A stretch of DNA of 56,122 nt, filler included, from Sphacelaria rigidula (taxonomy: Eukaryota), in NCBI GenBank assembly GCA_964200075.2. It is 6 parts of 6 records of this genome, joined end to end, with 100 filler letters (N's around TTAATTAATTAA, not from the genome) between each part and the next. Parts side by side here need not be neighbours in the genome. Positions count along the whole stretch, not along the records: positions 1 to 9,272 come from CAXNAA020008867.1; 5 more parts are not named here. One strand, written 5' to 3'. Position numbers and translations under genes: made by a program. The notes under the pieces were generated by a model. That model did no database searches. It was not told where the DNA came from and was given only the letters and a program-made list of their open reading frames with translations. Position 1 is the first letter of the stretch. Each line of letters starts with the position of its first letter. Below are positions 1-56,122 of the stretch, piece after piece.

Positions 1-50
1 AAATTTTTTTTGCCAAGCAAAAAACGGCATACCCGCTCCCCCCCCCACTG

Positions 51-117
51 GATCTCAGTCGAATGGGATGCGTGTCCAATGGTCAAATGACTAAGGCAAG
101 CAACAAATGAGTACGCC
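51..117 (+). mobile_element. 5'-truncated C-tailed LINE-like retroposon (family A), 13-bp TSD
   Basis: gggatgcgtg..aatggtcaaatgactaaggcaagcaacaaatgagtacg followed by a C-run. Flanked by CCCCCCCCCACTG at 38-50 and 118-130. Confidence 0.8.
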
Positions 118-142
118 CCCCCCCCCACTGTGACGTTTCCAG

Positions 143-415
143 GTATACGTGAACCCCTGCGACGAGGCAGCCCCGCCCGCATCGAAGTATGTCATCCGCC
201 AAATGCCCAAGTCGGTGCACCTCACAGGACCCCTCTCTTCTTCGTTCGCATCTACTCCTCGGGTCATGAGGTCGGTGCTACGGCGCCCGCCGCCGCGCCG
301 GCCTGCCGGGGAGTTGCTGGAGAAAGCGGTGTGGCGCGATCACCTCGGGGTTATTCCGAACCCGGGCTACGAACCAAATTCGCTGCTGTTCGGTAAGGGC
401 AAGGCTGCCTATGAG
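143..415 (+). CDS. PAN2: PAN2 deadenylase subunit, internal exon (linker upstream of the UCH-like domain)
   Basis: tttccAG acceptor at 141-142 and GTGGGT donor at 416. 91 open codons VYVNPC...RRPPPRRPAGELLEKAVWRDHLGVIPNPGYEPN...AAYE resemble the PAN2 linker (RPPP..D.EIL......IGY.PNP). Splices in frame to the 2676 exon. Confidence 0.75.
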
Positions 416-505
416 GTGGGTGGGTGTGGGGTGGGTACCCCCCTTCCTCGGGGGTAGCGGGGGTAGGGGTGTACCCGGGAGCGTGGTGGGGGGAGAGGGG
501 AGGGG

Positions 506-700
506 CGGGGGCGTACTCATTCGTTGCTTGCCTTGATCGTTTGATCGTTGACTACGCATCCCATTTGAGACGGAGCACCGTTCCTGCTCCACATAGAGAC
601 ATCTCCAATATTCCGGCGCTCATTACGTTTCTTCCATCTGTGGCCACCATCTATCTCCTAGTATAGCCATCGTTTTCTCCCTACTGTCTAATGCGTCAAA
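506..700 (-). mobile_element. C-tailed LINE-like retroposon family A fragment with internal deletion
   Basis: Reverse complement matches about 5210-5272 and 5325-5437. Ends atgagtacgccccc. Confidence 0.8.
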
Positions 701-1734
701 CACAGAGGGGGGAAGGGGGGGAGAGCTGCTCATGAACCTTGGCCTTGTTGGACAGGCGAGTGATACTGCTGTGACTTAGTTCATCGGCCCCGTTGTCTAC
801 GAGTCTGCCGGTTATTGGGATATTGACCATCCTTACCTTGACTACTCCCGTGCTTGAGTATATGACCCTTGATCCTTTGCCCGCCACGGTGAATTACATT
901 TCAAGCGAAAATAATGCTGATTCAACAGATTGCCCCACTCTGGGGGTCAAATGATTTCGATAAAACAGGTTCGTCTAGAAAACAATCGTAGTGGGAGTGA
1001 AGGGGGGGGGGTTGGGGGGAGGGAGGGAGGAGAGGATGCTCAAAGACGTATGTGAGGTGGCTCAAAAGAGTAGTACAGCCGTACCGGCGCGGTGCCCAGC
1101 TCAGAGTTGGGGCGATTCAACCCTCAGAAAACAATGTGTGTCTGCGGTAGGGGTGGTAGACCAAGAGAGAAGGGTGTGTCCTTGCTTCCCCCGATCGTAT
1201 GTTGCTGCTAGTTAGTGTCAACGCCTTATCGATGACTGTACGAAAGTGTGAAAAGTGGAGCAGGTCGCGGAATACGTTTTCCCCGTTCCGTGGGAGAGGA
1301 TATTCGTGTGTTGCTCGGCCGTTTCTTCCGGTTCGTTGTCTGCCGTCGTAATTTGCAGATAACGAGGAAGGAATACAAGATGCCTACGTTCTTACGGTTG
1401 GTTTTTTCACAAGATTTTCGAGGAACAAAAATACAAGACGAGGGAAATTTTACGAGATGGGCTCTCCTGGCTTGTATTTGAAAAAAAATTACGAGACGAG
1501 ATCGACTTGTATTTTTTTCTCGTATTTTTCATTCGTGGCGCGGCGAGACAAGCAATGTCCGCCAGCCCTGAATATGTTTGTGCCCTTCGACATCTGCGTG
1601 ACTCTCCTGACAGCAATATCGAACAGCCCCAGCGCCGTTTATACACTACACCAAACTTTGCTTCGGCATCCTGGCGCACGCAAGATGTCGTCAGGGGTTG
1701 ATGATCTATTGGCATCGACCGTGCTCTCGAAAAA

Positions 1735-2302
1735 CTGCAGCATAGACAGTACCCAGCGCAGAGATTACGTGATACTGTCTGTACTGTTTCATGCAGTGAG
1801 TTGTAGGTGTCAGTTTGCACAAAACGGTAGTACGCACGGCTGTAGTAAAAATGATGCGTAAAATATGAGATATGTGGACAGCGTGCAATACAGACAACAC
1901 TAGGCAGTACTGTACCGTCTATACTGCCGCATTAAACAGTAGGATCCACAAGCCATGCTGCCCCCAACGGCTGCCTGGGCGACGTGCAGTGCAGACAGTA
2001 GTACATGGCTTGTCCTGCCGCATTCGACAGTACAGTAGGACTGAAATGTTGGTTTGCCAGTACGATAGTGTACAACGGCTGCACTAAATATGATGTGGGC
2101 AACGTGCAGTACAGACAGAACTAAGCAGTACAGTATGCATGCGCGCATGTCAGGTTGCAGACGGTAATACACAACGGCTGCACTGAAATTGATGTGTAGG
2201 AGTGCAGTACAGACAGTACTATACAGTACAGTACCACTGTCTGTACTGCCGCATACGGGATACGGCAGTATAGATCGAAGATGTCAGTTTGCACACAGTA
2301 CG
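1735..2302. repeat. Degenerate satellite-like array (about 100-130 nt units)
   Basis: Recurring blocks tgcagtacagacag / ctgtctgtactgccgcat / tgtcagtttgcac / caacggctgcact, 4-5 times. Confidence 0.6.
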
Positions 2303-2675
2303 AGCTGGGCCAGCAGCGATCGGGGGGGGGGGGGTTATGTTTCACGTCTTCTTACACCAACACAGGAAGCTTGGCATGGCGAAGTCTTCAGGTCTTTGTA
2401 CCCCGCCTTGGCGTGCACACCCCCTTTGAATTTCGCTGACCGTACTTTTGGTACCTCCCCACTATTTTTGGTACACCACCCCCCTCAAAAATATATCTGG
2501 AGCCGTAAGCTAGGGTCAACATCTCACTGTATTTTCCTAGCGGTGTTTTTTTTCTCATAATATGTTGTAGAATACAAGGGGAAAAAATGAACCGGAAGAA
2601 ACGGTCTTATGCCTGCTTTAGCTCTCAATCGAGTTTTTATTGATTTCACGTTGGTTTTTTTTTCAAACAAAAAAG

Positions 2676-2800
2676 GTGGTTGACCCTAGAAGGCGAAAAG
2701 ACAAGGACACTCCGGTGTTCGATCGACGGAATCGTGGAGACGGTCTAGGTGGATCCGCCTCCAGCGCGCAAAAGATGGGCCTGGAGGATGTACCGCGTCG
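2676..2800 (+). CDS. PAN2: PAN2 internal exon
   Basis: T-tract then aaAG acceptor, GTGAGC donor at 2801. Encodes VVDPRRRKDK...MGLEDVPR; the phase-2 end (cg) joins g at 3194 to give VPRRYRRP, like PAN2 VPKKYRKV. Confidence 0.8.
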
Positions 2801-2896
2801 GTGAGCGAGCGGTGCTAGACAAGAAGAAAGAACAATCATGACTCCTTCTTTTTGTTTTTTTTTCGAGTCCAGCACTTTCCACCTGCCTCTTTCTCT

Positions 2897-3160
2897 GTGT
2901 TTGTTGTTGTTGTTGTGGTTGTTGTGGTGACGAGTACTTTACGATATCATGAAGCAAGTCGAAGGGGTACTACTGCACTCACAACTCCGTGTGTTGAAGA
3001 TCCCCTAGTCGTGGCCCGTGGAGCAAGCCTTCCCTGTGTGGTCTACAAGTCGGCACCGGCGGTACTTGACATAATGTCATGATGAACGGCAGTGGGCACC
3101 ACTTGTGAACAGTCAACACACGAGACCAGCTTACTCTGCCCCCGCATTCCCCTAACACTT
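2897..3160 (-). mobile_element. Possible retroposon ending in a (CAA)n tail inside a PAN2 intron
   Basis: Minus strand ends in cacaacaaccacaacaacaacaacaaac. Only one copy in the window, so unconfirmed. Confidence 0.3.
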
Positions 3161-3193
3161 CCATGCACCCGCCCCGCCATTTTGTTGGACAAG

Positions 3194-3313
3194 GTACCGC
3201 CGTCCGGCTCTAAATTTGGGGCGACGAGGGTTCGACGGTTTCGACTTCAGCCGTTACAACACTACCGAATACGCCGGTCTCGAGAATGGTATGGCGCACG
3301 CCTACGTCAACAG
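3194..3313 (+). CDS. PAN2: PAN2 exon, start of the inactive UCH/USP-like domain
   Basis: Encodes YRRPALNLGRRGFDGFDFSRYNTTEYAGLENGMAHAYVN, matching the PAN2 signature DFDF..YN.T.(Y/F)AGLE....N(A/S)Y.N. AG/GT boundaries; phases agree with both neighbouring exons. Confidence 0.88.
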
Positions 3314-3322
3314 GTGTGTAGG

Positions 3323-3403
3323 TGTTATTCTCCAGTGTGCGTCATACTCCAGTGTGTGTCTTACTCCAGTGCGTGTCATACTCCAGTGTGTGTCATACTC
3401 CAG
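3323..3403 (+). repeat. 17-nt minisatellite (gtgtgtcatactccagt) x ~5 just after a PAN2 donor site
   Basis: tattctccagtgtgcgt catactccagtgtgtgt cttactccagtgcgtgt catactccagtgtgtgt catactccag. Confidence 0.9.
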
Positions 3404-3931
3404 CGTTGGGATATTTTCATTCCCCTCCTTTATATATTATTGTTTTGTTATACAGGCTGGGCCGCCGAAGAAACGGACTTTTCTTCAGCCCGTTCTAACT
3501 GACGATGTATCGCGAGTTATGCCTACTAAGACACATCGTGGTGATATGCAAATCAGAACGCGTCTTTCGATCCACGTAGCACTGCGATCCGACAAGTCCC
3601 CATCAAACAGAATACCGAACTGCAGTCAGCTGCAAATCGTAAAGAGTGAAGGGTGACATGTGCGGCGGAATTAGGGCAACAAAACGGCTGAAATCGTATC
3701 TTCGGTTAGAGTCGGTTGTGCCCCGGCCGCAAAGTGGTGGTGCTGCACAAGTTGTGATTGTACTGTAGGCACGCAGTGTCTGAGATGACACGCAGACGAG
3801 GCCTCAAGCGCGCCAAAATCTGATAGTAGTGTGTGAAGCAGTGAGCAGTGGGTGAAGAAAGCTTGTAGAGAACGTCAAAGTCCCGGCTGAGGTTGTTGTG
3901 CTCTGAAAGGAAGTCAACCGGTTCTCGACAG

Positions 3932-4229
3932 ATAAGCGCGGTTGCGCTGCTCAATTTCGAGTCGTTTTCCATAAAATTTTGTCACGATGTACATGAGGTA
4001 TGTGCGAAGCCCTTATCGTTTCCCCCCTCATTTTGTTTTTTTCCTCGTGAGTGATTGGTGATCGATATTCCGGAACAATTTTCTCGGTACAAAAGCGTCG
4101 ACAAGTCATCGACACAACAAAATGAGTAAAGGGAGGAAGGACAATAAAGTCTTTACAACATACCTCATGCACACCGTGTCAAGATTTCGTGGGAAAAGGC
4201 TTGAAATTGAGAAGCATAACCGCGTTTCA
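3932..4229. mobile_element. Foldback MITE, copy 1
   Basis: Long imperfect inverted arms (gcgcggttgcgctgctcaatttc...aaaattttgtcacgatg / caccgtgtcaagattt...gaaattgagaagcataaccgcg). Homologous to the 4282-4667 copy. Confidence 0.7.
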
Positions 4230-4281
4230 TTCTTTCGTGGCTGGGTTGGTCCATCTCCACATGGGAACCTGTCTTCGATAC

Positions 4282-4667
4282 GAACACACGGTTATGCTGC
4301 TCAGTTTGGGGTCGTTCTCTATGAAATTTTGACACGATGTGAAGGACGTATGTGCGACGACCCCATTACCCCCCCCCCTCCCCCTACATTGCTCCGTCTC
4401 GAAAGGGATGCGTGGTCGATGGTCAAACGACTAAGGCAAGCAACAAATGAGTACGCTCCCCCCCTACATCTTTCGTTTTCTCCGTGAGTTATTGGCGACT
4501 AAACATTTCAGAGCAGTATTTCCGGGACTAAATCGTGAATAACTCACGAAAAACAAAAAATGTATTTGGGGGGGGTGATGGAGTCTTCGCACATACGTCC
4601 CGTCGTTTACATCGTGTCAAAATTTGATGGTGAACGACCCATGATTGAGCAGCATAATCGTGTGTTC
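4282..4667. mobile_element. Foldback MITE, copy 2, interrupted by a C-tailed retroposon
   Basis: Arms gaacacacggttatgctgctca...aaattttgacacgatg / catcgtgtcaaaattt...tgagcagcataatcgtgtgttc. Confidence 0.75.
4390..4459 (+). mobile_element. 5'-truncated C-tailed retroposon family A, 10-bp TSD
   Basis: tgctccgtctcgaaagggatgcgtggtcgatggtcaaacgactaaggcaagcaacaaatgagtacg, flanked by CCCCCTACAT at 4380-4389 and 4460-4469. Confidence 0.85.
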
Positions 4668-4707
4668 ACATTCCTGTCCGCGTCTTGGGCGGCCTAGCGT
4701 GTACTTT

Positions 4708-4858
4708 CACACCCTGCATAATGGGAATAGAAGACATCGTTAACACGTATACCGCGTACAGTATCGACTATTGCGTCTTTTTGCAATAGACAATGGATTC
4801 CATACTGTATGCAGTACATCTTTTGACAATGGAATCTATCGCCATTATCCAGGGTGTG
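4708..4858. mobile_element. CACACCCTG-ended MITE (~150 bp)
   Basis: TIRs cacaccctgcataatgg / ccattatccagggtgtg. Internal sequence shared, inverted, with 10379-10516. Confidence 0.75.
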
Positions 4859-4884
4859 CATACTCTTACTCCCCCTCCCCCCGC

Positions 4885-5437
4885 TTAGACGCAAAGTAGA
4901 CGAGGAAGAACACCTGAAGATATGCGATAAGCTGAGAGAGGAGATAGGGATGAAAACATATTTGCATGGCCCCATGGACGCGGCGGAAGATCTGAAACTG
5001 CGATTTCGGATCGAGGACCTGGACCCGCCAGAAAGAAGAAGGAGATTTACTAGTCGTCGAGAGGAGGAGGAAGTTGATGGACGGAATTGCTCGTGGAGCA
5101 AAGCAATAGAGAGCAGAAGTCATATAGTGGAAGAATGTGAACTATACAAGGAGGAACGGGACGTGCTAGAGGGGGAAATGCGGAACGTGAGCGAAGATGG
5201 TATGAAATCGTTTGATGCATTAGGCAGTAGGGAGAAAACGATGGCTATACTAGGAGATGGATGGTGGCCACAGACGGCGAAACAGGACGGGGATAAGATA
5301 TGTGGAAGGCTTCTGTGCAATGTGTGGAAGAAACATAATGAGCGCCGGAATGTTGGAGGTGTCTCTATTAGGAGTAGGAAAGGTGCTTCATCTCGAAAGG
5401 GATGCGTGGTCAACGGTTTAACGACTAAGGCAAACAA
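4885..5437 (+). mobile_element. 3' part of a non-LTR retrotransposon (family A) with C-terminal ORF remnant
   Basis: Open frame ...LKLRFR...NCSWSKAIESRSHIVEECELYKEER...GCVVNGLTTKA, containing a degenerate C-x-C-x8-H-x4-C zinc knuckle typical of LINE ORF2 C-termini. The same 3' end occurs as short truncated copies elsewhere in the window. Confidence 0.75.
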
Positions 5438-5501
5438 CGCCGGCTTTGTAGGGATGCGAGGTCAATGGTCTGATGACTATGGCATGCATGATCATGAGTA
5501 C

Positions 5502-5559
<58 letters not shown>

Positions 5560-5580
5560 CCCCCCGCCGCCCCCCCCCCC
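5438..5580 (+). mobile_element. C-tailed retroposon family B 3' end plus long C tract
   Basis: gccggctttgtagggatgcgaggtcaatggtctgatgactatggcatgcatgatcatgagtaca followed by a C-run. Same as copies at 12593, 28293 and 56042. Confidence 0.75.
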
Positions 5581-5914
5581 CTCCTTGGTCGGGGGGCGGG
5601 GACAGTGGTCGGGTGACTATTGCATGTATGATTATGATTACCCCCCCCCCCCCCCCGGCTACCCCCGCTCCTGTAGGACCAGTCTGTAGTCTCGAGGGAT
5701 CAACTGACTTATCTCTTCCTCGTCTCTTTCACCCCGTAGCATTGTATTTTCGAGGTTCGAATCAGCACTCAGGTGCTCGTATCATCAGTCCGACGGCCCG
5801 TCCGCCTTTTATTGGTACACAACTTTCGGCTTGCTCACGCGTCCTTGGGCCCTCCGACGACGGGAGCAAACACACCACTGACTCGTTGTAATTATCGTTA
5901 ACTTCATGGCCTTT

Positions 5915-6010
5915 GTTGACTTGCATTGACCTTATTGACTTCATTGGCTCCATTGGCTCCATTGGCTTCATGGACTATCGATTTGATCGATTTTCATTGA
6001 TCCCATTGTT
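5915..6010. repeat. 9-nt minisatellite (cattggctc / cattgactt)
   Basis: Directly visible tandem units. Confidence 0.7.
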
Positions 6011-6610: not shown

Positions 6611-6730
6611 TTACTAAGCGTATGGCGAGGGAAGAGAAGTGAGTAAAGGTATCAAAAGAGTCGGCCACCCACGGCGACATGCGATCTCTCTCAAGCCTAT
6701 CCCACCAAGGTTAATGCCCTACTTAACAAG

Positions 6731-7004
<274 letters not shown>

Positions 7005-7675
7005 AGAGAAAACACGCTTTGGTTCGGGTACGAAAACGGCAGCCTTCAGCAGGAGTAGGAGCCCCGTAAACCAGAGACACATACGACGGAGGTGTCTACG
7101 GAGCAATACAGCGTTTCTGACGTTCGCGTTTCAAAGCCGTTGAATCCGTGCAAGCTTTTTGTTCACGTGTGGCAGTTTGGACCAGCGGGACGCGATGGTG
7201 ACGGACTGGGCTGTGTTTATCTCAATACATACTGCAATATATGCGTCTGGTCAATTCTACTCTGCTCTATTGTATCCTGTCCTATTCTATACTATAGTGA
7301 CACCAAAATCAATATGGAGTGTACGCATTTAAAAAGCGTACGAAAGAGCAAAACAAAATGTGGGGTGTGTTATGTTATATAAAAAGTGACTTCGGTGCGA
7401 GTTCATGAGGCATTTCAGTGCGTGATGCGTGATTGATTCTCGGCCCCCCCTCTCATTCATTCAAAACAGTTTTTCCCCCTCGTCAGGTCTCATTGTCTAT
7501 TGGGGGGGAAGTGTGTCACTAGCTTCTTTTTTCAATGCTTCTGTGAAATTTCAGCATAATATCTTCCCCCTTTCTGTCTGTTTCCACCTATCTCTGCCTG
7601 CCCGTCCTTCTTTTTTTTTCCCTCTCTCTCCTTCTTGCTGCCTCGTCCCCGCTGTTCTGTTTACTTGCTCCTCAG

Positions 7676-9272: not shown

Positions 9273-9372
9273 NNNNNNNNNNNNNNNNNNNNNNNNNNNN
9301 NNNNNNNNNNNNNNNNTTAATTAATTAANNNNNNNNNNNNNNNNNNNNNNNNNNNNNNNNNNNNNNNNNNNN
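9273..9372. other. Artificial contig spacer (N44-TTAATTAATTAA-N44)
   Basis: All-frame stop linker within Ns. Confidence 0.98.
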
Positions 9373-10378
9373 GGAGGCGGGGCCGTGGGTGGAAGGTGGT
9401 CCTCCCCGGGAGGGGGGGGGGGGGGGGAGGGGGGGGGGGGGGGGACAGAGAGGGAGAGACGGAAAGCATATGAGTACGCAACCGCAGAAAAAACACAGGA
9501 ATATCCTGCACGCAAAAGAGACTCCACAGAAGTGACAGGTTTGTAGCGGATCAAACTAGCGGTGCACTTGATTTCGTTGGCGGACGGAGCATTCACTCCG
9601 ATCAGTGAGTGCACGTGAGAGAGAAAACGTATGCTTCCATAGAACAGAAGACTGGCGATGGTGTGAGCTGTACGCGATGAACATACATATATCGGTACGA
9701 ATACCGTACCGATAACTCGTGTCATGAGCCGTGCTACGGTATGAGAGCACAAAATCTTCTGGGCCGGAGGACTGGACTTATATATAGACAGACTCTCGCC
9801 CACCCGCACTCTTGGTAGTGCAGTCGAGACGAAGTTGCCTCTGATCGTGAGGCGATCCTCCCGCGGGCAGAGGTCACCAATAAGCTTCGGTGAGAGAGGG
9901 TGTCAATCTGAGTAGGCGGCAGTAATGCCGAGCAAGAGCCACATCGTGTAAATACCTCAGACACACGTGTTGGCCAAAAACGTGCACACTACCCACCGCA
10001 TTGTAGCACAACTCTGATCTGAATAATATCGAGCGGATGTGTGAGATCGTACGTCAACGCAAAAGTATTGCTCTTGGCGTACTCACGTCACACATCTCTC
10101 CTCGTCCGGATCTCCCAGTATTTCCTTGAGTTTCTCTTCCGCCTCTCTTATGGCATCCCTTTGCCTATCCAGCACCTGGTTGGATTATGGTGAGGAGAAG
10201 GGGGGGGGGGGTTGGGAGTTGGGAGGGGGAATAAGCAAATGCGAGGGATTTCTCTCTTGAATAGACCACCGTTGCGATGCCGGTGAGATCGACTTTCAAA
10301 CTGAGATGGTCACAAGATACCAACTTCGACTCCAACCCGGATCACCACGTTGAAGCGCGAGTAGAAACGAAAAACGAC

Positions 10379-12592: not shown

Positions 12593-12688
12593 AGCCTCGT
12601 CCGGTGAAAAACCGGCGTGCTCCAGCCCGGCTTTATAGGGATCCGAAGGCAATGATCTCATGACCATGTCATGCAAGATCATATGTAG

Positions 12689-12726
<38 letters not shown>

Positions 12727-12745
12727 ACCCCCCCCCCCCCCCCAC
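12593..12745 (+). mobile_element. C-tailed retroposon family B 3' end
   Basis: cctcgtccggtgaaaaaccggcgtgctccagcccggctttatagggat...catgcaagatcatatgtag followed by a long C-run. Confidence 0.7.
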
Positions 12746-12944
12746 CCACAACCCCCCTCTCACCGCGACAACNNNNNNNNNNCCCGCCTCTGTGTGTGCG
12801 CAGACAAAAGCACTACCACCCCTACACACGCAACCACAATTCCACCCCCCCCCCCCCCCCCCCCCCCGTCACTAACCTGAACAAATACAGCACAGGTGGT
12901 TAATGGAGCGCGAAGTGACCATGCCAACACCACACATTCGTCAC

Positions 12945-18644: not shown

Positions 18645-18744
18645 NNNNNNNNNNNNNNNNNNNNNNNNNNNNNNNNNNNNNNNNNNNNTTAATTAATTAA
18701 NNNNNNNNNNNNNNNNNNNNNNNNNNNNNNNNNNNNNNNNNNNN
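18645..18744. other. Artificial contig spacer
   Basis: N44-TTAATTAATTAA-N44. Confidence 0.98.
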
Positions 18745-37147: not shown

Positions 37148-37385
37148 CTGGTTTGGGGAGGCAAGATGTTCACGTTAATCGAAATGGAAAAAGACGAGCA
37201 CAACGAGCAGCTGGGAATTCCAACGCTTGAGTTAGTTCTCGCCAACGCCGCTCATATGAAGCGCTTCATGCAGCCTGAGCCCAAACATCAGGCGCTGTAT
37301 GGCCATTTTTTTCGGGACATTTTTGGGCTGGTTGAGGGGGGGGGGGGGGGGGGGGGGGTGTGTGGGTGTGGTCCCCGGGGAAGGG

Positions 37386-37485
37386 NNNNNNNNNNNNNNN
37401 NNNNNNNNNNNNNNNNNNNNNNNNNNNNNTTAATTAATTAANNNNNNNNNNNNNNNNNNNNNNNNNNNNNNNNNNNNNNNNNNNN
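37386..37485. other. Artificial contig spacer
   Basis: N44-TTAATTAATTAA-N44. Confidence 0.98.
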
Positions 37486-39216: not shown

Positions 39217-42200
39217 TGTTGTAGCACTATAATAACACAATAAAAAGCACTCACAACCAATCTTCAAACCAGAAACTAGGGACCGTAGAGAGAGTGGATC
39301 ACGGGGGTGAAAACAGAAAACCTTTCGGTCTTCACCTCTGTGTCTCTTCATCTCTTCAATTGTACTTGCCCACCTAACCTGTGATGTTAACTCTAAAATA
39401 ACCCACTCTTCCGTCGTCGAACACACCCAACAGCTAGTTTATGCTGTACGAAGTCCAAAACATAAAATCTCTGGTGAGCCTTAATATTTCTAATTGACAC
39501 TCAAACCAGCCGCCCCAAATCCTTGAGTATGACAAAACAGACTCCCAAGAAATGCAACATTCACTAATTTCCCCTGATTGCTTTACCCAGAACTCCACAA
39601 ATCGGTCCCCTTCCTCAAAGATGCTGCCTGTGTTCAACCTACACAATTATTCCAACAGTCAACTTCAAAGTAAAACAACGAAAAACACTCAAACTAAGGT
39701 AAGAAAATTAGTCAAGCCATTTCATCGTTCTCCTGGCGCAGCTTCATCTCCTTCTCGTCGTCGTGTACCGATGCCAAAACCACCCCCAATTGTCTAGAAT
39801 CTTGTGATGTCCGTCTTCAATTCCGACGATAGTCGATGGGCCCCTTCAGCATTCTGGCTGCAGTGTATGTGCAGAGAATTTTGAAGTCCCGCACTGCGCA
39901 TGAACATGCCAGCACCAATCCCCCACTTGATTTCTCGAGGCGTTCAAATTCTCCGGTGAGAGGTGAACATTGTACCTCTTTCCCAGATCCAGCATCCTCA
40001 AAGTGTGCGGGCGCCTTTGTAACGCCGCATCTTCTTGAAGACCCATCACCTGAGCTAGAAGCCATCCTGTCGTCTGCATTCGATAACATATTCAACAGCC
40101 GACAATTTGCGGGTCATACACATGAGGACCAAAAGTGACATTGCTCCTCAACTCATAGCCTTGAGCCACAAACATTTCTCCCCGTTTTCTAGCCTCCGCT
40201 CGCCTTGCCAAATTTATGCGATATGTTCGGTACTTCGAGTTGTTTGGCTTCTCCATTCTAGGATTCCCCATCCAGTACGTCAAAATTACCCGACCATATT
40301 GCTTTATGTCCTCCTCATGTTCCCACCTGGGCCTCTCCAAAATTCTTCCAATATAGTAGATATTGGACTGAAAGTTATCCTCCCAAGCCACGATATACAC
40401 GGTGACTCACAATCTTTGTGGGCTTCAGCCTATACGTGTCCAGCTGTATTGACATATCTTCCTCGGTTAGATGTAACGGAAGTGATAGTTCCGAATATTG
40501 ATTCAACACATACTGGCTTAAGCCCCAGGGTAGACTTCGGCGGCTCCGGTTGATCTTTTGGATTGATACACCGCTTACATCTCAACACAGGAACTCGGGG
40601 ACTCATGATTGCCTCCGGCTCAGTTTTCCGGAGTTCAAGCAACAGTAGTTTTCCTCCCACTAGCTCACCCTTTTCCGAAATACCTGGTTTCACCACCAAG
40701 ATTTCGTACGGTCCTCGCCAGGAATGCGACAGTTTCGACGGTAAGACTGTTTTTCCCCCCTCGCGTACCGCAGTTCCCCCTGACATGATAGTACCCTTAG
40801 TGCTAGTGCACAAAAACCCAATTGCCTACCTCCCACTTTGGCTTTCGATTTAGAGCTTCTTCCACCAACTCATTATCTGACTCGTGTTTGGATTTAATCA
40901 GAAAGTCATCTCGCCTCACAAGATCGTATGCTTTGGCTTGACGATCCTTCATCAACTGCAAATATTCGAGTTGGTCCGCCTTCAATCCTTGGTGTCCTAC
41001 CACACCCCTTCTTTCTAGGATGGTCATGGGTAACATTGAATATCTCCCTATATGCACCTCATTCGGCGCTAACCCTATTCCTCTACTTACATTCTTGTTA
41101 CAGTATGTGCAGAAATTGCGTGTAACAATAGCTTATCCCAGTCTTTCTGGTCATCTGCCACAAGGTACGACAACATCTGACAAAGCGTGTGGTTCAGTCG
41201 CTCCACCATCCCGCTAGCTTGTGGATGATACGCGCTCGTGTATCGTTTCACGGCTCCCAACATGTCATAGACTATTCTTGCCACTTTTGCTGTAAATCCC
41301 GTTCGTCGATCCGACAAAAACGTGTGAGGACATCCCCATTCCGGGATGTAGTCATGTGCTAAAATATTCGCACGACCTTCCGCTGTTTTCTCTTCTTCGG
41401 TAAGAGCATACGCTTCCGCATGTCAGCTCAACAGATCCACTATCAAAAGAATGTATGTATTCCCCTTCGTTGATTTTGGTAGCGGGCCCAACAAATCGAA
41501 CGAAACCATCTGCCCCGGTTGACTCGCCAGTGGTGAGGAAATAGGTGGCCATCTCACCGTATGTCTCGGATTTTTCCGAGCTTGACATGTATAACATCTT
41601 CTGATCCAGAATTTTACACTGTCCTTAATTCCAATCCACGAGTAATACCGTTTCAACAAAGATAACGTGACACCTTCCCCCAAATAAATCGCTTCTTTGT
41701 GAGTTTGGTCCATTACCCAAGGTCTCAAAAGCAGTGGCACATACGTTCTGGTTGGCTCTTTTCCCAAATACCTCTCAAATTGTCCCGACTTTCGGTCCAG
41801 TCGACTGGGCATTGGTGTCTGCTTTTTTACTAATAATAAACCTCCGTCCGATACTTCCAAGAGTGTTCCCTGTTTCAGTAATCTTTTGAACTCGGATAGG
41901 TCTATTCGTGTGGGAACCCCGTTTTCTTGATCCTTAGTCAACCCCGTCACCCGTTCTTTCAAATATTCTATGACTGTTCTCGACGTGAGATCTTCCTGCT
42001 GTATTCGAGCCCAATCGTTTGCCGATTCCTGACATAAACGTTCCCCAAAATGACAGGCTTCTTCTGCTTCCAGAGTCGGTGGTACCGTTGTTAATGGTCC
42101 CGCACTCCTGCTTCCTTCATTGGTCGTGGGTCCAATGACTAACACGGCTCTACGCTCTTGAGGTTATAGCAGTCTTCTCTCTACTTCCGTGGTCGGACAT

Positions 42201-44254
42201 GCATCCAGAGTCAATCCTTGTTCCCATTGTCCTCTGATCATGTCACTAATCTGTGGAGGAATTAATGGTGTGTCATCCTGTACCACGTACGAAGACTTAT
42301 CCACTTTCCACTTTCCACCCGTGCACCAATACTATCCTTCGCTCTTTGTAGCTCGATCCATGTTAGGTCAGCTTTTTTAGAGGTCGTGAGCGGTGCTGCA
42401 CTTACTGTTTTTTCCCCAATTTAGAAAACCGATCCAGGGTCTTGCCCATTCAAAAATGAATCGTGGGTACTCACTACCGATCCTACGTGTCCATCCCTGG
42501 CCGAGGTTTTAGAAATTCTCGGCCATATTCCACCAGCGCCAAACAACTAGGCATCCATGCCTCCCGGGTCCGTTATTCGGGCATCCCCAGACATGTCATT
42601 ATCATCCAGCGGCTGTGGTGAACGAGACAGCACATCCGCATTCGCGTTCACGCGTCCTGGCTTGTACTTAATTTCATAAGTGTACGCACTTGAAAAGTCG
42701 TGCCAGCGCTGAACCCTCGGAACCTTTTCTGCAAGGCTCAATAATTTCGCAAAGGTTGGTGATCAGTATAAATTTCAAACGGCACTCCGTAGAATAGTGG
42801 CCTGTTCTCTTTGATGGCCCACACAGTAGCCGCTGCATCTAATTCGGACACACTCCAATTTCTCTCGTTGGGGAGTGTTCCTCGACTAAGAAAAATAAGA
42901 GGTCGAACCGTGTTATCCTCTTGGCGTTGTTCCACCACCGCGATCAGACCATCCAGAGATGCATCCGTGGTGAGCATAATTGGTCGTTTTCCCAATGCTG
43001 CATCTTCGTAGTTCGAAAATGCTAAAACGTTCGTACCAGTCAAGGATGATGACATCTCCTTGGCTATCGATTCGTGTTCTTGAGTAAACTGAAACCAAAC
43101 CCCCTTCTTCAGCAATTGCGTTAGAGGTTTGAATCTCGCAGCCATTCGCGGAATAAATTTACGGTAGTAGCCCAAACCTCCCAACAATGATCTGAGCTGA
43201 GATACATCGGCTGGCATTGGCATCTTGACTAAAGCCTGTACCTTATCCTGACCAGGAGAAATTCCCTCAGCCGGGATGTGATGTCCCAGAAATTTGTTTT
43301 TTCATCCCAACATGTGCTTTTTTCGGTGCCAACTTGAGGTTGTACGTGGTCAGTCGTTGAAAAAGACCCTCCAAGTCATCTACATGTTGTTTGCCTAATC
43401 CGCTGAAGGTACACACATCATCAATATATAGACGATATCGTTCCAACCCATCAAATATTCTCGCCATGATAGCCTGAAACCAGCCTGGACTTCCACTGCA
43501 CCCCATCGGCATAACTAACCACTCATAGAGCCCACTCTGCGTAAAAATCGCCGTTAACGGGATTGAGTCTTGATGTACAGCCACATTGAAGTAACCGGAA
43601 GTGATGTCCAAACATGAAAATATTTTGGCACCCCCCAATTCATTGAAAAGTTCTTCAATAATTGGGATGGGCAACACCGATATTGTACTGTCATTCAGCT
43701 TCTTGTAGTTGCACGTGATTCGAATGGACCCATCCGCTTTGTTCACTACCACGAGCGGACTACTCCAGTTAGAATGTGATCTCCTCAAAATGCCTGCTGC
43801 GAGTATGCGGTCAATTTCAACTTGTACCTTCTTTTGAACCGCCGGGTTGTGACGATACGGGCGCTGTGTGACAGGCCTCGTCCCCGGTTTGAGTTCAATC
43901 TTAAACGGATCCACCGCGCAATACCCCAAATCCATCTTGTCCTTTGAAAATCGATGTTAATATTTGCACAAAAGTTCCCCCAAATTTTCAATGTCCTCAA
44001 CTGGCCAATGTGCGCCTTCCAACCCGAATTTTATTTTTCGCAAGTGTACGGGAAGCTTCACCCACATATCTTTGAATGCTCGTTGTTGTTCATTGGTCAA
44101 ACCGGCCAAAATCGGAAGTTCCTCTAAATTTTGGTCAACCGTGAATATCTCCTCGGGTTTCAGATTTTTTGTTTCAGAAATCGTAACCCTTTTGGAACCG
44201 TTGATGGAAAATTGACTATTTGCATTTGAGGTTTTTGTTACAGCGGATATCGAC
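39217..44254 (-). mobile_element. Decayed Ty3/gypsy retrotransposon: RT, RNase H, integrase, chromodomain, candidate 3' LTR
   Basis: RT 43267-43935 (SPLVVV.K.DG..R, LD...GY, MPMG, YIDD). RNase H 42738-43223 (TDAS, SELDA, TDHQPL). IN zinc finger (H...C..C), core (FDLLGPLP, SD, HPQ..G..ERLN) and GPY. Order RT-RH-IN. Many frameshifts and stops. TGTT...AACA segment at 39217-39423. Confidence 0.95.
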
Positions 44255-46754: not shown

Positions 46755-46854
46755 NNNNNNNNNNNNNNNNNNNNNNNNNNNNNNNNNNNNNNNNNNNNTT
46801 AATTAATTAANNNNNNNNNNNNNNNNNNNNNNNNNNNNNNNNNNNNNNNNNNNN
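46755..46854. other. Artificial contig spacer
   Basis: N44-TTAATTAATTAA-N44. Confidence 0.98.
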
Positions 46855-51253: not shown

Positions 51254-51944
51254 TTAATGCGTGTGCCACAATCCATCAACGCTAATGATCGAAGCCCCCT
51301 GTTATTCACAGAACTCCCCTGGTCGTCGCGATTCCCAAAAGCCGTTCTGATGCACAAGCTAAGATGGAGCATACACAAAGGTTTCCGATTGTATTTCCTG
51401 GCATGCACCAGGTATTCTGTCTCTGCCCCACTCTGATCCATTCTGCGCTGCACTACTACTACTGCTGTTAATGTATTTCCGTTATGATCGTAGTTTACCG
51501 ACCGAGCACCAGTCATGCGTGGCGTTCTTGACTCAACAAGCAAACGCCAACAGTCAGTGGCAACCAACAACCGACAGCGAACTAACACAATACCAACATG
51601 ATTGAGTAATTACTATACGTGAAGTACTCTGCGTATTCCTTTGTACGAGGGGGGGGGGGGGAGTAGGCGGAAGGCAATGGTCAGACGAACCCAGCAACCA
51701 AGATAATGGATAACACCCCGACTAAGGCTAACCGTAACTCCGATCCCAGCTTAAGGCGGACCGAAATTCCTTTGGCGGAGGGCAGGGGGGGGGGGGGGGG
51801 GGGGGGGGCCCAGGGGGCCTCAAGGAAAGGGGGGGGGGGGCGGGGTGGGGTCGGGGCCTGGGGCGGGCGCGGTTTGTCNNNNNNNNNNCCCCCCACCACG
51901 ACGTCGCCCGCGCGCCGCCGCGGGCCGGGCGGGGAGACTGGGGG

Positions 51945-51975
<31 letters not shown>

Positions 51976-54900
51976 CGCGGGGTGCCCAAGGTGCTCTAAG
52001 GAAAGCGTGGGCTGGCCGCGCTCGAATCGGCGCCTTGGAGAGCGCCGATTTTAGCCAAAATGCGTATTATACGTCTGCTGGGCGAGCTTGTGTCTTCGTT
52101 TCCTGAACATAGCCTCGCTCACTGCTTTAGTGGGTAAACTTTTCGCTTCCCGAACATAGCCCCCCCACGAGCTCCCTCAGCAGATGCAGTACGCTAAGAA
52201 GCGAACAGTTTACCCATTGAACGAGTGAGCGCTCAGTGGTCTAATGGGTAAAGTGTTCTCTTTCTGAACAAGCTATGAGCTCTGTAAGAATCCGACTATA
52301 TTGATCTCGCGCTAACGCCAATTTTGTGTTTAGCAGTCAGATTTTTGTCGCCGGGTTTGCATGAGCCCCAGGGTACCCTACCTTGTACTGTACTGGATAT
52401 CCGCTTTTTCACCGGAGTGTTGTCCCCGTTCATAAGCGCTGACGACGTCTCTCTTGTGGCAACGGGAGGATTCGTATCATGGCGGATGATCAATCAACGT
52501 GCAACAGCTGATGATTGATCATTGACGAAGCGGTTCAAAGGGACATCGTGCCGTTCGTTCCTACACACGAGTAGAAGAGATAGACCGTCTTGGCGGGACG
52601 TTGTCACTGGGCGCGCGCGCTCAGCGAACCGGATGCTGGCTGTCAATGATTCTATTCTACAACTGGCTCGTTTTGTCGCACTTACTGGCTTGATTTCTTT
52701 TTTAAATGTTCCGGACACTTGAAGAAGCACAAAACAGGAGGCAGCGCAGCATTATCCAGTTTGGTGGCAAGTTGAATTGAAGAGCTTTACCCGGGGATCG
52801 AGCATACTGTCGCTTAGTGTGCTGTGTTGTCCGTCTGCACTTTTGTACGAGATTCGTTTTGCTTCCGAATTTTTCGCGGTACCGTGGAGACAGCACAGCC
52901 AGCGCTAGCGACACCACGGTGAAATGAGTTCACGGCAGACTTGTTCCATGACGTAAATTCCGTGTGGTGAGACGGGACTGTGAAGGATCACGTGGAGAAT
53001 CGCTGTAAAACATGAAATGAAAGATCTTGCCTTTAGAAAGGAGGAATAGAAGGGTCGGCGGGGCGGGGGAGGGCGGGGTGGATGGGTTAACAAGTACACC
53101 CTGCGTAACGGTAGTACAACACAAACAGTTGCACACTCTCTGAAAGGTCCCCGACAAGGGTTTTGAGAGTTTATCGACAAGACCTTGAGAGTTCCGACAG
53201 CGGGCAGTTGTGTTTTTTGTCCAGTACGAGCGGCATGACTTTTTTTGTGGAAGATTGAAAATTTTCCGATATATACATATATGTACATACATACACTTTC
53301 GTACTCGCTCGTCATACGTACCGCTGTGTCGTGCTGCGCCAGAACATATCGTATACGTACTTTTGTAGGAACGCGGCTGCTGCTGCTGCTGCTGCTGCAG
53401 TGCACGTGCTTTCAGTTATTGACAGGGTCCTCATTAGCTACGTACTGTCGTGTCACTACTTCTGATTAGCGTGGGCAGTGAGCAGAGTACAATTTATACC
53501 TTGGACGAGGTGAAAGTCGGGCCGACGCCTTCTCGTGAGCCACTGACAACCCCAGAATCTTACAGTAAGTAGTATTACTACGGACAGACCGACAGACGGA
53601 GCACCACGGACCGGAAGATACTCGCCGCCCCCACCCGCCCAGCTCGCACGATCGAGTCCTGGCAAGATCTTACTTCCGCGTCACTCTCCGAAACACAGCA
53701 AAATCATCTGTCCATGGTGAGTGGTTCGAAGTCCTCCTGCGTGAGACCGACCGATTACGCATTTGCGAAAACGAACGTCCTAAGAACGGTTTCCGAGGAA
53801 GCAGCCCCGGAACTTTCCCCCACTCTACTATTTTCTGATGGCGCAGTCTATTCGTTGTGGTTGGAACAGGCGGTGATGTATATATATATATTATATATAT
53901 TATTGTGAGCTTCCTGTTGGATCCTTTTAACCTGTGTGCACTACGGAAGAAGTATGCGTCCGTTTCCGTTCTCTTTCTTCATGAATGTTTCCGAACACTC
54001 TCTTGTCGTGCTACGCCCCTATTTGAAGGTAAGGGGTACCGTGGGTAGATGCGACGGTGGTGGCGAAACGAACCAGAGTTTGGTAGGACGACTGTCGTCG
54101 GGGGGAGGGGTGGGTGAGGACACGGACAGTACAGACAGTGGAGCTTGTTTTGCGAAGAGGTCACGACGATCATGGTTGCATCTGCATGCGATTGTCGAAC
54201 CTTCGTACGGTTGTTGGAGCTCAACAATTGAACATGAAGAGTGTAGCAGCCGTTCGTCCATTTGCTCGTGTTCAGTTGAAGGAGCGAGCACAGTCGCGGT
54301 TCAGAGTACAGCGACAAAGCCACGCTAAACGACAACTGTTGTTGTAACCGCGCACTACAACAAAAAAGATGACTTCAAAAACAATTTGGACCACCCGCGT
54401 GAATCATGTCTTGAATCGGCATCATCTTTACCTCAAAAATGAAGTATCCCAGACCACCGACCCACCGTGGCGACTGAAGAGTTGATCGCTACTGCCGATA
54501 CATGACCACGCAGTAAATGTTCAAGACACTCGCTGTAGCTCTGCAGCGTCCTCCTCCTTCTCCCTTGTTCGGCACAAGTCCAGCACATCGAAGAACAGGC
54601 AGGGAAGGGGGCGGTCCCACGCCCAACCCACGGTTGGTATTCTCCTCTGCTGTTCGTAGGACATCAATCTTCTCGTATACACTGCAATATCTTGGCACGC
54701 TAATACTCATGTCTACAGCCGCGGAGCTGTGAAGAAGAAGCAGGGAGCAGCGAGAAAACGATGGTTTACGAGTGGCTTCGCAGCCCTCCCACTCCTTTCC
54801 CTCCCGCTCTTGTCGTGCTATCCTGCCCGCACCAAGACGATCCGGATTCGCTCCTCGCATGTTAGAACATTGGATATTAAATGCACGTGTTGGCTGAATT

Positions 54901-55947: not shown

Positions 55948-56122
55948 GCGCTCCGTCTCGAAAATGACGCGTAGTAAATGGTCAAACAACGACGAAGGCA
56001 AGTGACAAATGAGTATCCCCCCCCCCCCCCCCCCCCTCTCCCCTGGTCCGGCGAAAACCCGGCGTGCTCCGTCCCGGCTTCGTAGGGATGTGAGATCAAT
56101 GGTCTTATGCCTATGGCATGCA
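55948..56122 (+). mobile_element. Tandem C-tailed retroposon ends: family A, C-run, family B (cut by window end)
   Basis: gctccgtctcgaaaatgacgcg...aatgagtat + C-run, then cctggtccggcgaaaacccggcgtg...atggcatgca. Confidence 0.8.

Follow-up and report, generated by a model that had tools for sequence, protein, structure and literature searches.

The 56,122-nucleotide stretch of Sphacelaria rigidula DNA analysed here (assembly GCA_964200075.2; hereafter the window) holds several copies of one retroposon-like sequence, family A, whose 3' end runs into C's, and it raises the question of how a long interspersed nuclear element (LINE) could prime its reverse transcription on a homopolymer of C. A first-pass annotation of the window had proposed a G/C equivalent of L1's target-primed reverse transcription (TPRT), with a nicked G-run priming on an oligo(C) RNA end. 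This proposal is partly supported by the present analysis: the copies are those of a LINE, a C-run at the 3' end is general, the targets begin with C's and extra C's are found on the 3' side, the last three being the outcome expected from the pairing of a G-run primer with an oligo(C) template end. The reading favoured here, with a probability of about 0.6, is that family A is a 'stringent'-type LINE with a (C)n terminal repeat, in which a nicked G-run would prime on the C-tail and tails would be extended by slippage. The window consists of six pieces of ~9.27 kb each, joined through N44-TTAATTAATTAA-N44 spacers, and distances between pieces are meaningless; family A copies lie in at least three separate places of this one assembly. 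Contigs from four sequencing runs (X1, X2, X5 and X6, from three studies), labelled with a coded organism and as algae or protist metagenomes, were compared with window positions 1-6000. Run X6 includes complementary DNA, as one of its contigs is a spliced form; it is only guessed to be RNA, and contigs of any run cannot reveal RNA ends.

All six copies of the common 3' end listed in the first-pass annotation were recovered by blastn and tblastn (Table 1), spanning 65-553 nt. In the five with an intact end, ATGAGTA(C/T)(G) is followed directly by a C-run (C11 in A1, C5gC4tC4 in A2, CT then C7 in A3, C8 in A5 and C20 in A6), and none is followed by poly(A). The pattern ATGAGTAY(N)CCCC has five matches in the window against 0.02 expected, a number reached by 0 of 100 shuffles, and for positions drawn at random from the window, C5 or longer begins no more than 2 nt away with a frequency of 0.0074. 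With the last 21 nt of the element as query, three contigs were retrieved from metagenomes and a fourth from a bacterial metagenome-assembled genome (MAG) into which it had been mis-binned, with C-runs of C8 (L001), C10 (L002), CCTC7 (L003) and C13 (L004); the MAG containing L004 has one copy of the 3' end only, and the viral contigs scanned for it gave no match. Intact family A ends thus run into C's in nine of nine cases (five in the window, four in independent public contigs) and into A's in none. The window contains 16 runs of C or G of at least 12, the longest being 56, no run of A or T above 11 and no run of A above 10.

The nature of the element becomes apparent from its intact relatives. 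Family A belongs to the APE-type LINEs and measures ~4.9 kb, with one long open reading frame (ORF) in which an N-terminal domain of RRM-like type is followed by endonuclease, reverse transcriptase (RT) and CCHC knuckle; ~4.9 kb is the length over which L002 and L004 align, the 5' junction lying outside both contigs. In these two contigs the frame is intact, with 1426 and 1382 codons. Protein P0009 (1360 aa), a relative of the longest window copy, matches Exo_endo_phos at residues 170-392 (3.4e-12) and RVT_1 at residues 740-989 (9.8e-31), and PDB matches to the RTs of L1 ORF2p and R2 have an E of ~1e-20. The arrangement of an APE endonuclease N-terminal to the RT in one ORF is that of APE-type LINEs, and the 5'-truncated copies with a common 3' end and target-site duplications (TSDs) of variable sequence are likewise those of a LINE. 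Since the intact relatives encode both endonuclease and RT, the window copies are LINE copies; the longest of them, A4, is 74% identical to residues 1242-1425 of P0010 (tblastn), its 5' limit being set by alignment to L002 and L004. The stop codon had been placed about 5 nt before the C-run, and TGA is indeed found within AAATGAGTACG, leaving a 3' untranslated region of 5 nt, as seen also in the intact ORFs of L002 and L004; the ORF C-terminus reads ...GCVVNGQ.TKASNK. A zinc-knuckle-like ORF end had also been described, and it is intact in the relatives (CPCGKAIESRTHIVAEC), whereas the second Cys is gone in the window copy (NCSWSKAIESRSHIVEEC).

The N-terminal ~100 residues, in a model with a mean predicted local distance difference test score (pLDDT) of 70, adopt a beta-alpha-beta-beta-alpha-beta (ferredoxin/RRM-like) order, and the best fold matches are weak ones to RRM domains (E 6.7e-3, every match lying above 0.001); L1 ORF1p appears further down the list. 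A poly(C)-binding fold was considered for this domain and rejected, the matches being RRM-like and weak, with no pointer to a KH domain. The closest named relatives of the protein are unnamed Ectocarpus sp. proteins with 67% identity over the RT region, which close with the same peptide (...RGRVVNGLTAK); the matches carry no clade names. A C-terminal CCHC knuckle and an ORF of ~1400 codons are not known to be typical of RTE proper. The database proteins of the relatives were predicted by prokaryotic-style gene finders. Upstream, the long frame of L004 has no ATG ahead of the RRM-like domain, and the 5' region of the element (L004 4262-5259, minus strand; L002 4400-5110, minus strand) contains tandem ~85-nt repeats in L004.

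The 3' end is distinguished from the rest of the element by its conservation. Over ~3.6 kb, L002 shares 79.4-79.6% of positions with L001 and L004, but 70 of the last 72 nt (97%) are identical. At the protein level, 19 relatives out of 123 have GCVVNG followed by 8-10 residues and a stop, and with a single exception they rank among the nearest ~36. A 3' end that is more conserved than the body and is common to short non-autonomous elements is the hallmark of 'stringent' LINEs; the poly(A) tail of L1-like 'relaxed' LINEs was found at 0 of 9 ends.

Two such short elements are recognisable. The copies had been described as variably 5'-truncated, which holds for two of them (~190 and 553 nt) but not for the four short ones (A1, A3, A5 and A6), all of which start within a few bases of GCTCCGTCTCG. 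Joints of the form unit-Cn-unit (118-126 to 4389-4392, n from 3 to at least 11) are present in at least 133 contigs of X1 and at least 108 of X2. Because the short copies and the C-run joints begin at one point, they represent a discrete ~66-nt unit and not random truncation. The second element, family B, is ~97 nt long and likewise has a constant start of its own, TGGTCCGG (12595; 28395, minus strand; 56044), and its last ~66 nt match the A tail at 49 of 65 positions; read from the sequence in the frame of A, it has a stop in the aligned region and no terminal stop. Its ends and tails are ATGAGTACA with C56 and more, ATATGTAG with C38aC16, ATGATTA with C16, and GAATAC with CTCCCC. The copy at 4884 (A4) had been taken to be cut by a family B end. 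It does stop 11 nt early, with the B end following from 5437, but the B unit's own upstream part, and not A4, precedes 5440 in 157, 169, 100 and 47 contigs (X1, X2, X5 and X6), and the composite would be explained more simply as one insertion through a template switch from B RNA to A RNA than as B cutting A.

Neither B nor the 66-nt unit has the head of a known short interspersed nuclear element (SINE), that is, a tRNA, 5S, 7SL or small nuclear RNA head with an RNA polymerase III promoter. Rfam gave no match in the whole window at gathering scores, ribozyme and small-RNA heads included, and none in the two whole B units at E up to 5, a threshold at which only three chance-level matches appeared, all in the C/G-rich 5562-5667; no tRNA-like sequence was found by ARAGORN.

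Target sites provide the second line of evidence. The two clean TSDs that had been reported to start with C's are both exact and adjoin the element (13 nt in A1, 10 nt in A3). In each of the five window copies whose 5' junction is present, a run of at least C5 lies within 40 nt upstream (background frequency 0.047): C7ttC6 is found at 707-721, just upstream of the 5' end of A2, C5TC6G adjoins that of A4, and C9TC lies 21 nt upstream of that of A6. For A3, the C-run of the target lies in one arm of an inverted repeat, and the run must have predated the insertion because the partner arm also has one (G8 at 4568-4575). From the 5' TSD copy to the 3' side, the C count rises from 9 to 11 in A1 and from 5 to 7 in A3, and the composite of A4 and B carries C56 and more on its 3' side against C5TC6 in the 5' flank, at least ~44 C's beyond any TSD. 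The 3' run thus exceeds the 5' TSD run in three of three comparable cases (+2, +2 and at least +44), and the C's that flank the copies are both tail and target.

The read contigs extend these observations beyond the assembly. Contigs matching A1 through C11 at position 126 number 763, 664, 135 and 47 in the four runs, and their consensus adds 9-17 more C's (agreement 0.41-0.48 over the 30 letters listed). As many as 80,707 (X1) and 95,878 (X2) contig pieces were placed on the 6 kb, and the summed contig depth, which is not a copy number, is 10^5-10^6 over the units as compared with 20-40 over unique parts; family A units are clearly very abundant. The lengths of the longest runs are uncertain since N10 assembly gaps adjoin long runs, at 12773 and 51879.

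On these observations, a sequence of events can be proposed. The last ~70 nt, which are conserved, would act in cis as the 3' end, ahead of a terminal repeat of C alone. Two short elements that are very abundant and have constant 5' ends share this tail, the ~66-nt tail-only unit and the ~97-nt non-coding B. The element protein would bind the conserved RNA 3' end, and a nick in the target would leave a 3'-OH strand ending in a G-run (the site being a C-run on the element strand). This G-run would pair with the template (C)n that follows the 3' end, reverse transcription would begin there, and free slippage on the homopolymer would add from a few to tens of extra C's per insertion. The choice of G/C runs as sites could lie with the endonuclease, as the first-pass annotation had implied, or with the annealing of primer and template. 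The new tails could then become targets, generating unit-Cn-unit arrays and composites and seeding long C/G homopolymers throughout the genome, which would explain the arrays, the B-A and A-B neighbours (28217-28395; 55950-56122) and the orphan runs. The (C)n itself would most likely be inherited from the donor's own C-run via transcription into that run, by analogy with LINEs with non-A terminal repeats. A more far-reaching form of the model can be advanced tentatively, at somewhat less than even odds. In that form, C:G pairing replaces A:T pairing at TPRT priming, long poly(C) arises by reiterative copying, and the process is the main source of the genome's tens of thousands of long G/C homopolymers, which are prone to form G-quadruplexes and i-motifs; the ~66-nt tail-only RNA, about the footprint of the protein on its own 3' end, would then be among the smallest efficiently transposing retroposons.

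Several observations weigh against the favoured reading. The addition of C's at insertion is deduced from the comparison of TSD copies in two elements and from one composite in low-complexity sequence; no empty allele (a joint skipping a short copy) is present among the joints listed for the four runs; and the tails of the three full-length intact copies measure only C8-C13. The CT that follows GTACG in A3 also precedes its 5' TSD, which allows a tailless insertion with a 12-nt TSD and later slippage. Ten of the 16 long C/G runs of the window have no recognised A or B end adjoining, and the model does not account for the constant point at which the 66-nt units start. RNA structure at the 3' end was sought in seven folds, none of them significant (z-scores -1.90 to +0.45), and the consensus fold (-7.9 kcal/mol) has almost no covariation, three of 14 pairs being doubly changed, in one sequence each.

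Some of these points would be accommodated by a tailless element that ends at ...ATGAGTACG and inserts specifically into (C)n tracts, all flanking C's being target DNA and the long runs arising by replication slippage. The C-runs that flank the copies at either end, the X6 loose ends ahead of 4390-4392, which are C-runs, the explanation of A3 as a tailless insertion with the TSD CTC5TACAT and the short C8-C13 of the intact full-length copies are all consistent with such an element, which is nevertheless judged unlikely given the excess of the 3' run over the 5' TSD run in every comparable case and the presence of more than 20 C's at the 3' end in hundreds of copies; nor does it offer an origin for the first long runs in a window where A/T runs never exceed 11. 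The tail could instead be real and untemplated, added to the RNA by a polycytidylating nucleotidyl transferase or produced by an RT that adds untemplated G's before engaging the template. Tail lengths do vary widely (7 to more than 56), C24 and C30 also close at least one further sequence family of the window, and C-rich RNA tailing is known in algae from the polycytidylation of Chlamydomonas mitochondrial mRNA (PMC5727444). There is, however, no support for such an enzyme acting on a nuclear or cytoplasmic LINE RNA, the T, G and A interspersed in the tails resemble inherited, decaying runs, and the non-A terminal repeats known in LINEs are described as copied from the template (PMC3747384); an untemplated origin is accordingly thought improbable.

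The unit-Cn-unit joints, present in more than 100 contigs per run, are also what a satellite-like tandem repeat of the ~66-nt unit and its C-run, spread by recombination, would produce; yet single units stand at unrelated places, two of them with exact TSDs, the unit coincides exactly with the 3' end of a LINE ORF that is intact, and longer 5'-truncated copies exist, all of which makes a satellite very improbable. As for an artefact of sequencing or assembly, the two-colour poly-G effect against which the first-pass annotation had itself cautioned was tested and rejected. The N10 gaps next to long runs do make the exact longest lengths unreliable, but the runs are internal, flanked by unique sequence and TSDs, and the same junction recurs in contigs of the four runs and in four unrelated public assemblies, and the chance that the runs are artefacts is put close to nil.

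Placed beside known systems, the favoured C-tailed LINE has features of two. In L1 and Alu, the A-tail pairs with T-rich target DNA at priming (PMC3812793), and family A resembles them in encoding an APE endonuclease and an RT in one protein, in its 5'-truncated copies with TSDs of 10-13 nt, and in a 3' homopolymer that merges with a TSD starting in the same base, with tails serving as new targets. Unlike L1 and Alu, its homopolymer is C and so does not stem from ordinary polyadenylation, its ORF stops 5 nt ahead of the tail, and its 3' end is conserved and common to short elements, which makes recognition look sequence-specific and not directed at the tail only. The 'stringent' LINEs are the closer counterpart. 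Stringent LINEs and the SINEs that carry their tails have terminal repeats such as (TGTAA)n in UnaL2, (TAA)n in I, (TTG)n in RTE and (CA)n/(CAA)n/(CCAT)n in green-algal RTEX, and in LINEs these are thought to serve template slippage at initiation (PMC3747384). Family A shares with them the conserved 3' end, the short terminal repeat and the short non-autonomous partners with the same tail. It differs in that its repeat unit is a single C, (C)n being absent from Table 3 of PMC3747384, and in that its targets begin with the same homopolymer as the tail; furthermore, stringent LINEs usually have a conserved stem-loop, whereas family A folds no better than shuffles. Microsatellite-specific LINEs insert into a simple repeat, which then flanks them on both sides, and LINE clusters nest head-to-tail via their tails. 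Family A would resemble both in these respects, but its 3' run is longer than its 5' run, so that the repeat is not target DNA alone.

LINEs of Ectocarpus, which include the nearest named protein relatives of family A, comprise RTE-X, RTE, CRE and Unknown, with LINE-dependent non-autonomous families such as RTEX-N1_Ec32; also described there are non-autonomous elements, in abundance, that have their 3' end in common with a LINE, families of very short elements and an enrichment in introns, and termini are not mentioned in the main text of that report (PMC12477816). No description of a C-tailed LINE was found in the literature, in agreement with the first-pass annotation and within the limits of text searching, which cannot match 'poly(C)'.

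Apart from families A and B, the window has a number of other features. An expressed host gene with exons at 141-413, 2674-2799 and 3193-3313 (plus strand) and GT-AG introns is joined in one 4676-nt contig of X6; A1 lies in an intron, ~25 nt before the acceptor at 140/141, at a site that was probably the intron's former C-rich pyrimidine tract, and A2 is within the next intron. The region 1400-2600 is highly repeated (summed depth 4,000-19,000 against ~30 in unique sequence), with many positions at which nearly all contigs differ from the window. One contig of X2 with the joint 126 to 5272 has TTAGGG-like letters (GGATTAGGCTTAGGGTTAGG) directly after the family A C-tail, and may represent an insertion beside telomere-like repeats. 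A foldback at 3940-4700 has arms at ~4300-4480 and 4545-4700 and a third related copy at 3940-4030, each containing a C/G run in its interior; the run of the left arm is the one that received A3, and the summed contig depth over 3940-4700 is also high. The repeats at 3940-4026, 4300-4368 and 4576-4660 ('family C') were considered as a third C-tailed retroposon and rejected, their C-run being internal to inverted-repeat arms.

Further C-rich ends occur at 51785-52005 (minus strand), where two related units ~176 nt apart, unlike A or B, have C24 and C30 after an end that reads ...CTTTCCTT(A)GAG...GGG, with an N10 gap between them; these may be another C-tailed family. Unattached C/G runs of 12-23 at 2322-2334, 9412-9444, 10200-10211, 12845-12867, 37336-37358 and 51649-51661 may be tails, either orphaned or belonging to other families. 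A double G16 stands at 9412-9444, and next to it ATGAGTACG is found on the plus strand with no C-run after it. Elsewhere, fragments of a Ty3/gypsy-type pol are found at 41423-43956 (minus strand), with RVT_1 (2.4e-22) and an integrase zinc-binding domain (1e-10) in separate frames, and a 12-nt tandem repeat array of ~390 nt (family D1) at 6665-7054. Two long inverted repeats, at 32163-32735 (247-nt arms, 90% complementary, 79 nt apart) and 27181-27626 (161-nt arms, 80%), may be similar to miniature inverted-repeat transposable elements (MITEs).

Table 1. Positions of family A and family B sequences, target-site duplications and spacers in the window
Feature	Position	Strand	Basis or remark
A1, 65-nt tail-only family A unit, end ATGAGTACG	51..115	+	blastn, tblastn to family 3' end
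A1 3' side, C11 then ACTG: two extra C, then 3' TSD copy	116..130	+	
A1 TSD, CCCCCCCCCACTG (C9ACTG)	38-50 / 118-130	+	exact 13-nt match
A2 imperfect C-tail, C5gC4tC4tctC6 (minus strand)	487..511	-	
A2, ~190-nt 5'-truncated family A copy, last ~60 ORF codons	512..~703	-	tblastn to P0010 residues 1350-1426; blastn
A3, 66-nt tail-only family A unit	4390..4455	+	blastn, tblastn
A3 3' side, CT C7 TACAT: 3' TSD copy, two C more than 5' copy	4456..4469	+	
A3 TSD, CCCCCTACAT	4380-4389 / 4460-4469	+	exact; 12 nt with preceding CT included
A4, 553-nt family A fragment, last 184 ORF codons (C-terminal), decayed CCHC knuckle, last 11 nt missing	4884..5436	+	
B 3' end, 66 nt, end ATGAGTACA, joined to A4	5437..5502	+	blastn
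C-rich tail of B end at 5437, C56 g C6 g CC g C12 t CC	5503..5583	+	
Second, decayed B end (5584-5640) and C16 (5641-5656)	5584..5656	+	77% identity (family D8)
Whole B unit (12595-12688), end ATATGTAG, tail C38 a C16 a CCC...	12595..12765	+	N10 gap after, 12773
A5, 68-nt family A unit (28225-28292) and C8 (28217-28224)	28217..28292	-	blastn, tblastn
Whole B unit (28299-28395), end GAATAC, CTCCCC spacer (28293-28298)	28293..28395	-	directly upstream of A5
A6, 67-nt family A unit (55950-56016), end ATGAGTAT, and C20 (56017-56036)	55950..56036	+	blastn
B unit, start TGGTCCGG, just after A6 tail (tctcccc), cut by window end	56044..56122	+	
Spacers	9273-9372, 18645-18744, 28016-28115, 37386-37485, 46755-46854		stops in all six frames

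If the favoured reading is true, family A provides a natural test of the initiation of TPRT, in which the complementarity between primer and template terminal repeat would stay the same whichever base provides it. A LINE with a C-tail would have to manage without polyadenylation or poly(A)-binding proteins, and its 3'-end formation, ribonucleoprotein assembly and nuclear import would be unlike those of L1. For the host, a very abundant family that leaves C/G homopolymers of tens of bases would create numerous sites at which replication and sequencing are difficult, and assembly gaps in the window already lie at such runs. Annotation would be affected as well: the 66- and 97-nt units and the orphan C-runs would escape notice, or be annotated as simple repeats, unless their retroposon nature is recognised.

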